A stretch of DNA of 52,918 nucleotides from Patescibacteria group bacterium. GTDB lineage: Bacteria; Patescibacteriota; Minisyncoccia; Phycocordibacterales; JACOZG01. The stretch spans positions 1 through 52,918 of the forward strand of contig JBBTRZ010000017.1 in the NCBI GenBank assembly GCA_038064935.1, read 5' to 3'. Of the stretch, positions 27,526 to 29,628 are shown in pieces (the stretch's first letter is position 1; each line of letters begins with the position of its first letter). The translations under genes and the position numbers were made by a program. Under the pieces are notes generated by a model, which was not told the DNA's origin, did not search any database, and was given only the letters and a program-made list of their open reading frames with translations.

Positions 27526-29628
27526 TTATTTCCTATTGGCGGTTAGGAGTTTGAGTTCATCGCGAATAAGAGCGGCGGTTTCGAAGTCGAGCTCCTTGAC
27601 CGCTTCGCGCATTTGGCGTTCTTTCTCTTTGACAATTTTGCGCGTGTTGCCGCCGTAAGTTGCCCGGTCGAGTTTGACGAGTTCGGCGAGTGCTCGCGCT
27701 CGCTCATACTCCAGCCCCTCGCTGATGTCGCTAATTTTTTTAATAATCGTCTGCGGCGTAATCCCGTGCTTTTGGTTGTAAGCCAATTGTTTCTCCCGCC
27801 GCCGATTAGTCTCGTCAATCGCCGCGCGCATCGAGCTAGTCACTTGGTCGGCGTAGAGAATCACCCGACCTTCAACATTGCGCGCCGCGCGCCCGATCGT
27901 CTGAATCAGCGACACCGTTGAACGCAAAAAACCTTCTTTATCGGCGTCAAGAATTCCGATCAAAGTCACTTCCGGCAAATCAAGACCTTCCCGAAGCAAG
28001 TTGACGCCGACGAGACAATCAAAACCCTCTTTATCGCCATTCGTCCCGCGCCGAAAGTTCGATAGAATTTTGATCCGATCAATCGTCTTGATATCGCTGT
28101 GGAGATACTCGGCATTGAGGCCGGCTTCTTTAAGATAACGACTCAAATCTTCCGCCATCTTCTTGGTTAAAGTCGTCGCGATCACGCGGTGGCCACGCGC
28201 AATCTCTTTCGTCGCTTCGGTGATGAAGTCTTTAATCTGACCGGGATAGGCCACCTCACCCCCCGCCCTCTCCAAAGGAGAGGGAGCCACTCCTCCCCTT
28301 TTGGGGGAGGTTGGGAGGGGGTGAGAGACAACTGGCCGCACACTGATCTCCGGATCAACCAATCCCGTCGGGCGAATAATTTGCTCAACAATCTGATTGC
28401 TAATTCTGCGTTCATAATCGCCCGGCGTGGCGCTGGTGTAAATTATCGGTCCCACTCTGTCATTAAATTCTTCAAATCGTAGCGGACGATTATCGAGCGC
28501 TGAAGCAAGACGGAAACCGTAATCAATCAAGGTTTGTTTGCGACTCCGATCACCGGCGTACATGCCGCCGATTTGCGGTACCGTGACATGGGACTCGTCT
28601 ATGATGGTCAAGAAATCAGGCCGACTATTTTTATCTTTAGGAAAATACGAAAGTAAAGTGTCCGGTGGCTCGCCGGCCAGCCGTCCCGACAAATGGCGAG
28701 AATAATTCTCAATGCCCGAACAATAACCAACTTCTTTAATCAAAGCCAAATCGTAATTAGTCCGACGCTTCAAGCGTTCCGCTTCAAGCAGTTTCCCGAC
28801 TTTGGTTAGTTCTTTTAATCGAGTCGCGAGTTCTTGTTTAATCGAAACAATCGCCAATCGCCGGGCCGTAGCAGAAGTGATAAAGTGCTTGGCCGGGAAA
28901 AGAAAAATTGTTTTCCGACCGGCCACTACCTCGCGCGTAATGGCATTCAATTCCGTAATTTCTTCAACACCGTTCAAACTAGTGTGGATCGCGTAGATCT
29001 CACGACCACTCGGCGGAATCACTTCCACTATTCCACCGATTGCCCGAAAAGTGCCGGGGGTCAGATCGGCGTTAGTTCGTTCATAATGCACATTCACCAA
29101 ACGCCGCACCAGATCGGTGCGAGAAATTGAGTCGCCAACCGCAAGCTTGAAATTTTCGGCTTCGTAATCTTTGGGACTGCCTAAACCATAAATACATGAG
29201 ACCGAAGCGACAATAATCACATCACGACGGGTGAGTAGGGCCTGGGTCGAGGCGTGACGGAGACGATCAATCTCTTCATTGATCATCGCGTCCTTCTCGA
29301 TGTAAGTATCGGTCGTTGCAATATAGGCCTCGGGTTGATAATAATCGTAATAGGAAACGAAATAGTGAACCGCGTTCTCGGGAAAAAAATCTTTGTACTC
29401 TTGAGCGAGTTGGGCCGCGAGCGTTTTATTGTGAGCGATCACCAGAGTCGGTTTTTGATAAGCGGCAATGATATTAGCCATGGTAAAAGTTTTACCCGAG
29501 CCGGTGACACCAAGAAGTGTCTGATGAATTAAATTTTGCTTGAGACCGCGGGTGAGGGCGGCAATCGCCGACGGCTGATCGCCGGCGGGCTGAAAGGGAG
29601 AATGTAATGTGAAACCGGCCGGATTCAT
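27526..29628 (-). CDS. uvrB: Excinuclease ABC subunit B
   Basis: The start is taken at [22 protein letters not shown] (ATG 29628); the ORF extends to 29655 but runs into a terminator U-tract. It has [18 protein letters not shown], helicase motifs and the C-terminal UVR domain ([16 protein letters not shown]). Confidence 0.96.
28255..28325. repeat. 71-nt GC-rich three-hairpin element, copy 2 (inside uvrB, in frame, opposite orientation to copy 1)
   Basis: Plus strand: CTCACCCCC CG CCCTCTCC-AAA-GGAGAGGG AGCCACT CCTCCCC-TTTTG-GGGGAGG TTGGGA GGGGGTGAG. It encodes [25 protein letters not shown] between VRPVV and YPGQIKD. Confidence 0.75.

Follow-up and report, generated by a model that had tools for sequence, protein, structure and literature searches.

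Several kinds of short palindromic repeat have been described in bacteria, some of which are tolerated within genes. Rickettsia palindromic elements (RPEs) occur in frame in unrelated genes, where they are translated at positions compatible with the fold of the host protein, and are also found between genes (reviewed in PMC10969869). Other systems to which a palindromic element may be compared are the REP sequences with their RAYT genes, the REPIN doublets, MITEs such as Correia, ERIC and Nezha, and the palindromic amphipathic repeat coding elements or PARCELs (PMC2996958). The Geobacter genome paper of Aklujkar et al. (PMC2996986) reports 'multicopy palindromic sequences', and its supplementary table gives a consensus that reads ...CCCCCTCCCCTTGACGGGAGGGGG..GGGGGTGGG....

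The locus described here is a 72-nt block lying in frame in uvrB, within a 52,918-nt (52.9-kb) stretch of DNA that was analysed as a whole and is called the window. The source genome is that of a groundwater member of the Patescibacteria (CPR). We hold, at a probability of roughly 0.68, that the block is a non-autonomous palindromic DNA element that sits in the interdomain linker of UvrB and spreads or persists as DNA.

Anatomy and folding of the element

The host gene and the parts of the element, termed element A, are as follows, the arms and hairpins being given as read on the plus strand.

27526..29655, minus strand: uvrB, a 709-aa open reading frame hosting element A, identified by named UvrB homologues with matching Pfam domains
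28255..28325, minus strand: element A, a G/C double hairpin forming a REPIN-like doublet in frame in uvrB (covariance model score 97 bits on the minus strand)
28255-28263 and 28317-28325: outer arms CTCACCCCC / GGGGGTGAG
28266-28284: hairpin CCCTCTCC-AAA-GGAGAGGG
28292-28310: hairpin CCTCCCC-TTTTG-GGGGAGG

On the plus strand, positions 28255-28325 read CTCACCCCC-CG-CCCTCTCC-AAA-GGAGAGGG-AGCCACT-CCTCCCC-TTTTG-GGGGAGG-TTGGGA-GGGGGTGAG, which is the in-frame GC-rich arrangement of an outer stem and two hairpins that the preliminary description had reported. Its palindromic character stands, while its size needs correction from 71 nt, as the inserted block measures 72 nt in the source genome, two orthologues having a version of 69 nt. 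The right half approximates the reverse complement of the left, as in a REPIN-type doublet, and the outer arms form terminal inverted repeats of the kind seen in MITEs. The element is made up of two inverted G/C half-units, in each of which a short linker joins a C-rich tail to a CCTCCCC-loop-GGGGAGG hairpin.

Folded as single-stranded DNA, element A takes a three-helix shape at −27.2 kcal/mol, against a mean of −17.7 for dinucleotide shuffles (z = −3.6), an energy equalled by none of 200 such shuffles; one long hairpin is an alternative fold. The pattern CCTCCCC-N3-7-GGGGAGG occurs three times in the window, always within copies A and B (the second copy is described below), and 100 shuffles gave an expectation of none. 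The tetranucleotide GTAG/CGTC is absent from the flanks of A and of its orthologues in L001 and L002, and copy B and its counterpart in L138 carry CTAC at one end only. A search of Rfam by e-value over positions 26000-30000 of the window returned two chance-level hits and no family match.

Position of the insertion in the UvrB protein

Element A interrupts the uvrB reading frame without a stop codon and, on the gene strand, encodes a 25-residue peptide rich in Pro, Gly and Ser. Compared with solved UvrB structures, query residues 15-442 match chain residues 5-427 and residues 471-702 match 428-653, leaving 28 query residues unmatched at one junction. This junction lies between strand E436-440 and helix H473-486, where the two RecA-like helicase domains meet. 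Relative to the 'empty' CPR orthologues (VKPVTGRASYPGQ), the protein is longer by a net 23 residues or so. The insertion announced earlier is therefore real, though its count of 24 extra codons does not agree with the 25 residues of the peptide listed for it. Most CPR orthologues have a 5-residue linker at the site and the solved structures have none, so that a homologous peptide is not shared by all UvrB orthologues, an outcome that favours the preliminary description.

In an AlphaFold model, pLDDT falls to 46-64 over residues 441-470, from about 90 on either side, and the insert is accordingly predicted to form a low-confidence surface loop, the location that had been expected of it. The landing site would be the short variable linker that joins the two RecA-like domains. 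The frame used has no stop codon in either orientation of the element, and indels among three orthologous uvrB copies are of 3 nt each and preserve the frame; since they come in multiples of three, the element is probably translated. The length of the block, itself a multiple of three, and the openness of about four of the six reading frames across it likewise make it probable that the ribosome reads through, yielding what would be a flexible Pro/Gly/Ser-rich surface loop that UvrB tolerates.

We found nothing in favour of an artefact of assembly or binning, nor of a segment that is excised or bypassed before the protein is made. Independent assemblies, made from different samples in different projects (L001, L002 and L003), all contain the insert, it is in frame with 3-nt indels, and it has no stop codon, matched take-off and landing codons, intron-like features or Rfam match. 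Artefact, intron and translational bypass were rejected on these grounds, and their probability is negligible. Other assemblies of the source region stop at the same place.

A second copy in a neighbouring gene

26392..27525, minus strand: gene that carries copy B and encodes a membrane-anchored CPR protein without a Pfam family
26870..26940, plus strand: element B, the second copy, in frame in the minus-strand gene (covariance model score 95 bits on the plus strand)
26882-26900 and 26910-26926: hairpins of element B

The second copy, which had been noted in a gene unrelated to uvrB, is confirmed both by the covariance model and by comparison within the window, where B matches the reverse complement of A at 83.6% over 67 nt (E = 1.7e-5). 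It folds at −25.9 kcal/mol (z = −3.7). The opposite strands of A and B score 47-51 bits, against 97 for A on the minus strand and 95 for B on the plus strand, and the two copies are therefore oppositely oriented, although both host genes lie on the minus strand. Being read from opposite strands, they encode different peptides, that of B being TPPSALPEGEGTYTSPLGGGSEGVEG, which has a transmembrane helix on one side and a WKTYRN..YGFEFKYP domain on the other.

A near-identical copy of B occupies the same place in L138, a Paceibacterota genome, with a nucleotide identity of 0.92 in the element (0.96 at third codon positions) versus 0.46 (0.36) in the rest of the gene. The copy-B peptide module recurs in many diverged CPR proteins, some with half an element and some with none. 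Copy B lies in an N-terminal module common to many paralogues, and the spread of this copy could in part reflect expansion of a gene family and not transposition.

Conservation and distribution at the uvrB site

Between uvrB orthologues, the insert is better conserved than the gene that carries it. Its nucleotide identity is 0.89-0.96 (0.91-1.0 at third codon positions), compared with 0.67-0.76 (0.42-0.50) for the rest of uvrB in the same orthologues. In every orthologue that carries the insert, the DNA is palindromic, as the preliminary description had supposed. These figures bear directly on the notion of a lineage-specific protein linker under selection for its peptide, in which the palindrome would be incidental low complexity. 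A Pro/Gly/Ser-rich composition is shared with many linkers and the copy-B peptide recurs in many proteins, both of which would suit such a linker. Identity at third codon positions is, however, 91-100% within the insert and about 45% in the sequence around it, the opposite of what peptide selection predicts, and this pattern already contradicts such a linker. The reading of the two copies from opposite strands as different peptides, and the presence of the same DNA between genes in other genomes, add to the case against a selected peptide, which we regard as very improbable.

The distribution of inserts singles out this position of UvrB. Inserts of at least eight residues are present here in 48 of 121 Paceibacteria UvrBs, versus no more than two at any other internal site in the same set. 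The junction is a hot spot used by several unrelated palindrome families: at least three of these, together with empty sites, are interleaved among close relatives. In a neighbour-joining UvrB tree, built without support values, inserts of the G/C, AAGGAC and AAGGT types and empty sites are mixed in one tight clade, and P0019, with a G/C-type insert, falls elsewhere in the tree, among relatives whose site is empty. Inserts of the other types form strong hairpins as well, at −28 to −78 kcal/mol. Patchy occupation of one conserved site by an element better conserved than its flanks resembles a homing cycle. The element occurs at this one position in lineages separated by relatives with an empty site or a different palindrome, and on the preferred reading persistence and spread would act at the level of DNA and not through the peptide. 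The element thus behaves like mobile or homogenised DNA.

Selection on a nucleic-acid structure could equally account for the high nucleotide conservation. In that case the insert would be old and vertically inherited, without ongoing mobility, and kept for a folded function, for example as an mRNA fold that slows the ribosome between the two UvrB domains or as a DNA structure to which a host factor binds. Changes in the insert fall mostly in loops and spacers while the stems are conserved, and differing hairpins at one domain junction in many lineages are what selection for 'some hairpin here' could yield. Against this, the site is empty and free of hairpins in many close relatives (e.g. L337), occupation on the UvrB tree is patchy, and in Yonathbacteria the peptide of the insert is retained although the folding is only weak (−23.5 kcal/mol over 132 nt).

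Several observations at and around the site weigh against mobility. No filled and empty pair was seen between near-identical genomes. In about 204 kb of CPR DNA the covariance model recovered the subfamily at two places only, the uvrB junction and the copy-B locus; it is low-copy there, with no sign of a high copy number or of recent jumping within this genome, and this also favours a retained folded function. Hairpin scans together with the same model brought up nothing more of the G/C type, either in the window or in relatives amounting to about 150 kb. Neither a Y1 homologue nor a DUF559 endonuclease gene is present in the 52.9-kb window. Target-site duplications are not visible at the uvrB boundaries.

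The family beyond the window

Element A belongs to a little-described palindromic family that spans several bacterial phyla. That a repeat family exists, as had been claimed from the two copies in the window (both inside genes), is borne out by copy B, by its near-identical L138 counterpart and by at least 131 matches to the full-architecture pattern in named genomes. The family is not peculiar to such genomes: it has received little description, it extends across several phyla, and the Geobacter genome paper includes a sequence related to it, without giving it a name. Among the matches listed, hosts include Chloroflexales, Rhodocyclaceae, Gallionellaceae, Geobacter/Desulfuromonadales, Prevotella, Chitinophagaceae, Oscillospiraceae and one Paceibacterota. 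The double-hairpin architecture recurs in Chloroflexales, Beta- and Deltaproteobacteria, Bacteroidota and Oscillospiraceae, in many cases as an in-frame part of an interdomain linker. One Chloroflexaceae MAG, DAOTYR01, has matches on more than 20 of its contigs, and the half-unit pattern has 106 matches in viral contigs.

In-frame hosts elsewhere comprise polyketide synthases, RNase R, a hybrid histidine kinase, an HrpA-like helicase, a GH31 glycosidase and a PLP-dependent enzyme, and the in-frame copies of other phyla lie mostly between Pfam domains. Family copies are also intergenic in other genomes, and both orientations are seen; this presence between genes and in unrelated proteins of other phyla is a further argument against retention for a folded function at the UvrB junction. 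Across 92 matches aligned to the model, 94.9% of cells are paired, with compensatory changes at 22 of 24 pairs, a level reached by none of 500 shuffles, and outer-helix pairs are 88% paired across the family. Such family-wide compensation favours a conserved folded function and is also part of the preferred reading, in which the stems are maintained by compensatory changes and the nucleotide sequence is conserved far above host synonymous sites. Taking both sides together, we judge an old insert retained only for its fold to be unlikely.

A MAFFT alignment of family members placed the subfamilies out of register, and RNAalifold run on it picked an alternative single long hairpin; because of this register error, a covariance model structured by hand from five CPR copies was used in its place. 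An intramolecular triplex was also considered, the 5′ tail CCCCCTCC being the mirror image of the stem arm CCTCCCCC. The idea was dropped because the pattern used to search viral contigs itself required the tail; in members found without that requirement, the tails pair with the other outer arm and are not mirror repeats. A literature search by the strings CCTCCCCC/GGGGGAGG returned only unrelated papers on human promoters.

Candidate mobilising enzymes

Mobilisation of a non-autonomous element would require an enzyme acting in trans that recognises the hairpins. There are two candidate leads, the RAYT-like Y1 transposases and the DUF559 endonucleases, and the partner could be either a DUF559 (Vsr-like) cassette with G/C-family ends or a RAYT-like Y1 HUH transposase of the kind found in related CPR genomes. 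In the related genomes L339 and L002, RAYT-like Y1_Tnp genes are flanked by palindromes of their own, different from those of the G/C family. This Y1 family has more than 1300 homologues, and those with a source name come from Parcubacteria-group bacteria. HMMs built from three and then from 120 CPR Y1 proteins found no Y1 gene near G/C elements in about 330 other loci, and a literature search yielded no paper joining RAYT terms to CPR terms.

The second lead comes from other phyla, where DUF559 open reading frames are bracketed on both sides by G/C units in seven of eight cases (L108, L115, L116, L119, L185, L248 and L344), one of the seven having been found by protein search alone. A single-protein DUF559 search of viral contigs gave two usable loci. 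DUF559 has been grouped with Vsr and with a group I intron homing endonuclease (PMC3424549). At L108, a tail and hairpin are followed by the DUF559 frame and then by a hairpin and tail, which is the layout of the doublet with an open reading frame in place of the spacer. The L248 cassette has a perfect 25-nt terminal inverted repeat, and at L185 and L108 the entire cassette lies in frame within host proteins.

These arrangements, together with the site-specific, patchy pattern in uvrB that resembles a homing cycle, suggest a special form of the preferred reading, in which the doublet is the remnant of a DUF559 cassette that homed to a conserved site and then lost its endonuclease gene. Such homing would account for recurrence at one site in distant lineages. 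Other facts fit it poorly: neither the window nor any CPR locus examined yielded a DUF559 gene, such cassettes being seen only in genes other than uvrB and in other phyla; the uvrB inserts examined contain no open reading frames, so that the occupied sites there hold no endonuclease gene; the family lies at many sites in different genes, unlike a single narrow homing target; in most cassettes the C-rich tails point towards the open reading frame, the reverse of the compact doublet; and the phage DUF559 gene L345 is unflanked. We therefore put homing forward only tentatively. The same doubtful standing attaches to its broader form, whereby G/C double hairpins would represent the termini and, once the gene is lost, the remnants of an unrecognised class of selfish DUF559 (Vsr-like PD-(D/E)XK) cassettes that insert in frame across phyla including CPR, their hairpins and endonuclease domain being tolerated as translated extra loops or domains, and site-directed homing explaining the repeated hits at the UvrB junction.

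Implications

Palindromic repeats were found in several CPR genes, namely uvrB, tgt (at two sites), dus and a secreted-protein family. On the preferred reading, small, gene-dense Patescibacteria genomes would carry several palindromic-repeat families in conserved housekeeping genes, and part of the variation in CPR protein length would stem from selfish DNA and not from adaptation. A short G/C family common to distant phyla would supply proteins with new linkers on a wide scale. The repeated use of one codon junction by elements whose nucleotides are far better conserved than those of the host gene would provide a system for studying how hairpin elements are targeted and persist, and the hairpin bracketing of DUF559 genes suggests a function that can be tested for this large domain family of unknown function. 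Annotation and alignment should recognise such inserts, which inflate divergence and may be mistaken for lineage-specific motifs.

Comparison with known systems

The likeness to RPEs, proposed in the preliminary description, holds in behaviour. The element lies in frame in unrelated genes, in either orientation and at structurally permissive positions (a predicted surface loop in UvrB), and has in-frame copies in proteins of other phyla. Size, composition and host suggest that it is unrelated to them in sequence: RPEs measure about 100-150 bp and form Rickettsia-specific families, each with a conserved peptide, whereas the element is 72 nt long, occurs in either orientation and across phyla, and in CPR recurs at one site beside other palindrome families.

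With REPINs it shares a doublet of inverted hairpin units, a short spacer and stems kept by compensatory change, and the RAYT-like Y1 genes of related CPR genomes, flanked by their own palindromes, show the classic REP/RAYT arrangement. It differs from REP sequences in lying inside genes instead of between them and in having no GTAG/CGTC head, and no RAYT gene flanked by the G/C family was found, nor any in the window. REP systems have tens to hundreds of mostly extragenic copies per genome and their families are usually lineage-specific, while the element is low-copy in the CPR DNA examined and its family crosses phyla.

Like MITEs (Correia, ERIC, Nezha), the element is short and non-autonomous, with terminal inverted repeats and occasional in-frame fusions, and the DUF559 cassettes with the same hairpin ends would be its 'autonomous' counterpart, although none was found in CPR. 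Neither a target-site duplication nor a parent insertion sequence with a classical transposase was seen, the candidate partner being a PD-(D/E)XK endonuclease. PARCELs (PMC2996958) are also translated palindromic coding DNA distributed horizontally among diverse microbes; they are, however, longer and form tandem arrays of amphipathic repeats in surface proteins, in contrast to a single insertion encoding a disordered Pro/Gly-rich loop. The Geobacter palindromes (PMC2996986) clearly belong to the same G/C hairpin-plus-tail class, although they are listed as intergenic, are longer owing to a wider spacer and were not analysed further, that paper giving no mechanism, cross-phylum distribution or enzyme link for the class. 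The uvrB element is, in our assessment, a further variant of the RPE/REPIN-like kind.

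A palindromic element in uvrB and its second copy

The palindromic segment of uvrB is a G/C double-hairpin element, present in the window in two copies:

28255-28325, read on the plus strand: copy A, CTCACCCCC CG CCCTCTCC AAA GGAGAGGG AGCCACT CCTCCCC TTTTG GGGGAGG TTGGGA GGGGGTGAG, within the minus-strand ORF 27526-29655 (uvrB)
26870-26940: copy B, within the minus-strand gene 26392-27525, encoding a membrane-anchored protein of the Patescibacteria (CPR)

The outer stem enclosing hairpins that the preliminary description had drawn is read in copy A as a 9-bp outer stem and two 7-8-bp hairpins, and the closest homologues of the host ORF are Patescibacteria UvrB proteins, near 'Candidatus Vogelbacteria', at no more than 85% identity. 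Folded as single-stranded DNA, copy A takes a three-helix shape of -27.2 kcal/mol, compared with a mean of -17.7 for dinucleotide shuffles (z = -3.6), none of the 200 being as stable. The window has three instances of the pattern CCTCCCC-N3-7-GGGGAGG (none expected), all of them in copy A or at 26870-26940, where the proposed second copy was recovered as a match to the reverse complement of copy A (83.6% over 67 nt). A covariance model gives copy A 97 bits (minus strand) and copy B 95 bits (plus strand), with ~50 bits for the opposite strands, and since both host genes lie on the minus strand, the copies are in opposite orientation and are read from opposite strands. Copy A is read in UvrB as a 25-residue peptide and copy B in the neighbouring gene as TPPSALPEGEGTYTSPLGGGSEGVEG, roughly four of the six frames being open in each. 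Copy B lies in an N-terminal module in which a transmembrane helix precedes the element peptide and WKTYRNxxYGFEFKYP follows it; this module is common to many diverged CPR proteins, some of whose variants carry the left or right half-element alone and others an unrelated linker.

The insert as an added loop in UvrB

Aligned with solved UvrB structures, residues 15-442 of the query correspond to chain residues 5-427 and residues 471-702 to 428-653, leaving 28 residues between the two pieces without a counterpart. Most of 120 aligned UvrB homologues read VRPxxxxxYPGQ at this junction, so that the extra residues between VRP and YPGQ are indeed an insertion, as first proposed. An 80% identical orthologue (locus L337) has VKPVTGRASYPGQ at the junction, its coding DNA forms no hairpin and the site is empty. 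In an AlphaFold model (50 sequences in the input, mean pLDDT 79.5), residues 441-470 have a pLDDT of 46-64, and the flanking strand E436-440 and helix H473-486 both reach ~90. The insert sits at the junction of the two RecA-like domains of UvrB, whose assignment we take to be that of the Bacillus caldotenax structures, with residues mapped by the structure alignment.

The same block occupies the same place in an 85% identical protein (P0001; locus L001) and in a 72% identical one (P0019) found in two independent assemblies (L002 and L003). Orthologous blocks differ by indels of 3 nt and by a small number of substitutions, these differences lying chiefly in loops and spacer, and the conservation of the reading frame argues for translation of the block. 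In codon alignments, nucleotide identity of the insert between orthologues is 0.89-0.96 (0.91-1.0 at third positions), against 0.67-0.76 (0.42-0.50) in the rest of the gene; for copy B and its counterpart in a Paceibacterota locus (L138), the values are 0.92 (0.96) and 0.46 (0.36), the host proteins being 32% identical. With the insert far better conserved than the surrounding gene, a linker that is neutral and vertically inherited is ruled out. Judged from these alignments, either the element is much younger than the divergence of its host genes, or its nucleotide sequence is constrained or homogenised.

A family of G/C elements in other genomes

The suggestion of a repeat family extends well beyond two copies. 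Its members consist of CCTCCCC-loop-GGGGAGG hairpins and C-rich tails, a tail and a hairpin forming a half-unit and two inverted half-units a doublet, and the full doublet pattern has at least 131 matches in species-representative genomes. Among the matches listed, Chloroflexaceae/Chloroflexales predominate, the other hosts being Rhodocyclaceae, Gallionellaceae, Sulfuritalea, Geobacter/Desulfuromonadales, Prevotella, Chitinophagaceae, Oscillospiraceae and one Paceibacterota (L138); a single MAG, DAOTYR01, has matches on more than 20 contigs. Viral contigs gave 106 matches to the half-unit pattern in 89 stretches, mostly singlets, with some wide inverted pairs and a few compact doublets. With a looser pattern, the metagenome matches listed comprise many related subfamilies, among them some that resemble copy A, in contigs of 42-55% G+C. 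Doublets also form tandem arrays with a period of ~125 nt or ~40 nt (L168 5392-5868, from Chloroflexus islandicus; L119; L244; L328), and the family can thus amplify locally as well as disperse.

Across 92 matches from both strands, in an alignment fitted to the covariance model, 94.9% of cells are paired and compensatory changes, almost always CG to UA, occur in 22 of 24 pairs; shuffles never attained these values, and slid registers gave 66-81% pairing. Pairing and compensation beyond shuffles point to a hairpin structure maintained across the family. Given a plain alignment, RNAalifold favoured an alternative single long hairpin, as expected because the right half of a doublet is the reverse complement of the left.

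Among the matches listed, 95 genome hits are clear of contig ends, and 28 of these lie in an open frame with at least 60 codons on each side. Pfam scans confirmed the host proteins of in-frame copies as real:

L109 (two copies), L114, L126: polyketide synthases, in or adjoining inter-domain linkers
L173: RNase R, between RNB and S1 domains
L195: hybrid histidine kinase, between HATPase and receiver domains
L185: HrpA-like helicase, between HA2 and OB domains
L108 (Prevotella): GH31 glycosidase, residues 201-224
L324: inside a PLP-dependent enzyme

Further copies lie between genes.

A hot spot at the UvrB junction

The junction carries an insert of at least 8 residues in 48 of 121 UvrBs, and every other internal site, including the linker of low confidence that precedes the C-terminal UVR domain, has at most two such inserts. 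Junction DNA was fetched for ten relatives:

L213: doublet of AAGGACNGTCCTT, -44 kcal/mol
L214, L338: CAAGGTYSAACCTT, as doublets or composites
L215, L216, L339: G/C-type units in rearranged form, among them 'inside-out' hairpin-tail ... tail-hairpin arrangements
L340 (Yonathbacteria): 33 residues, the peptide conserved across the group and weakly structured

In a neighbour-joining tree on conserved columns, built without support values, the clade of at least 80% identity mixes empty sites with G/C-, AAGGAC- and AAGGT-type inserts, and P0019 (G/C type) falls outside it, among empty-site relatives. Such a distribution requires repeated gains at one position or turnover of elements there.

Other palindromes in the window

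Further palindromes were observed in the window:

30458-30504, minus strand, tgt: perfect 17-bp-stem palindrome CCCCAAGGACTCACCTT..AAGGTGAGTCCTTGGGG, in frame, encoding RTHLKNYPQGESL
30744-30830, tgt: perfect 21-bp inverted repeat with a 45-nt spacer holding its own small hairpin; DNA fold -35.4 kcal/mol, z = -7.7
38762-38835, minus strand, dus: 20-bp inverted repeat with one mismatch and a 32-nt spacer, inside the dihydrouridine synthase ORF
39148-39184, minus strand, dus: 13-bp GC-rich hairpin inside the same ORF
29771-29822, uvrB-tgt intergenic region: 13-bp inverted repeat
14673-14704, between two genes: perfect 14-bp hairpin with A/T-rich ends, AAAATCTCTTCGCC AGCT GGCGAAGAGATTTT

The first belongs to the family of the L213 uvrB insert (RTVLKKVPQGQSL), with a compensatory change at the stem centre; its 16 residues are missing in the closest TGT orthologues (L213, L337), other palindromes occupy the site in L214 and L002, and this TGT site is a second hot spot. 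The second lies inside a variable TGT insertion of ~50 residues, where the Pfam match is split. The two dus palindromes may be further in-frame insertions, and the hairpin at 14673-14704 looks like a bidirectional terminator. At the left end of the window, three independent Logan assemblies of the region all stop ~25 nt before position 1, which suggests a repeat or coverage break.

Candidate mobilising enzymes

We infer that the element would be a non-autonomous hairpin element, mobilised in trans by an enzyme. The 52.9-kb window holds no candidate for such an enzyme; RAYT-like Y1 transposases and DUF559 endonucleases are leads from other loci. Three RAYT-like Y1_Tnp genes of Paceibacteria are associated with palindromes of their own:

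L339 3316-4046: CGCAAGAACCGTTCTTGCG
L339 8298-8987: ATCAAGGGCTACCCTTGAT
L002 11521-12251: CACTTGGAGGCNNNGCCTCCAAGTG

In L339 (Zambryskibacteria), one of the two genes lies directly upstream of uvrB (Pfam 24.9 bits against a cutoff of 23; best NCBIfam match a REP-associated tyrosine transposase at 29 bits, under the cutoff of 80), and each has its own palindrome on both sides. In L002, which has the G/C uvrB insert, the homologue is broken by an internal stop codon and flanked by three CACTTGGAGGCNNNGCCTCCAAGTG copies, one in frame inside the gene; in the adjacent uvrC, another palindrome copy encodes the last residues, SLGGLASK. Homologues of the Y1 family number more than 1300; where a source is named, it is a Parcubacteria-group bacterium, and the label is just 'transposase' or 'hypothetical protein'. 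The 15-mer class CAAGG-N5-CCTTG, distinct from the G/C family, occurs 17 times in ~190 kb of CPR loci (the window, L002, L003, L138, L213, L214, L337, L338 and L339; ~0.2 expected) and not in ~2 Mb of loci from other phyla. These copies include units flanking a Y1 gene and those in uvrB of L213, L214 and L338, and several lie inside tgt, uvrB and uvrC.

DUF559 domains (PF04480, Vsr-like) were found in two of eight host proteins scanned and, by tblastn, in six G/C-element loci, all six with G/C units within ~60 nt on both sides:

L248: perfect 25-nt terminal inverted repeat
L108 6058-6432: tail-hairpin, DUF559, hairpin-tail, in frame in the Prevotella GH31, splitting its TIM barrel
L185 5397-5786: doublet, DUF559, half-unit, in frame in the HrpA-like helicase, between its two RecA-like domains
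L116, L119: whole doublets as flanks

Searching viral contigs at the protein level, without regard to hairpins, gave two usable DUF559 loci: in L344 the gene stands between two direct doublets of ~105 nt, and in the AT-rich phage L345 it has no G/C flanks. No DUF559 gene was seen in the CPR DNA examined. One paper (PMC3424549) places DUF559 together with Vsr and a homing endonuclease of a group I intron.

Comparison with known palindromic elements

Overall, the observation and the interpretation of the uvrB element in the preliminary description both hold. To these are added a cross-phylum family, nucleotide conservation well above that of host genes, a single-site hot spot common to unrelated palindromes, further in-ORF palindromes in the window and two enzyme leads. 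In a limited searchable literature, we found no paper tying RAYTs or such palindromic elements to CPR, or DUF559 to palindromic flanks. A Geobacter bemidjiensis genome paper gives, without naming it, a palindromic consensus belonging to this G/C class, and describes a different family whose members sit inside genes in every frame without causing frameshifts. REPINs are closest in anatomy, but their cognate RAYT and GTAG/CGTC head have no match here, and the present copies, in contrast, are intragenic and low in copy number. Closest in behaviour are the Rickettsia palindromic elements, which likewise lie in frame in unrelated genes (PMC10969869), and the resemblance originally drawn to them is upheld by in-frame insertion in uvrB, the copy B gene and proteins of other phyla.
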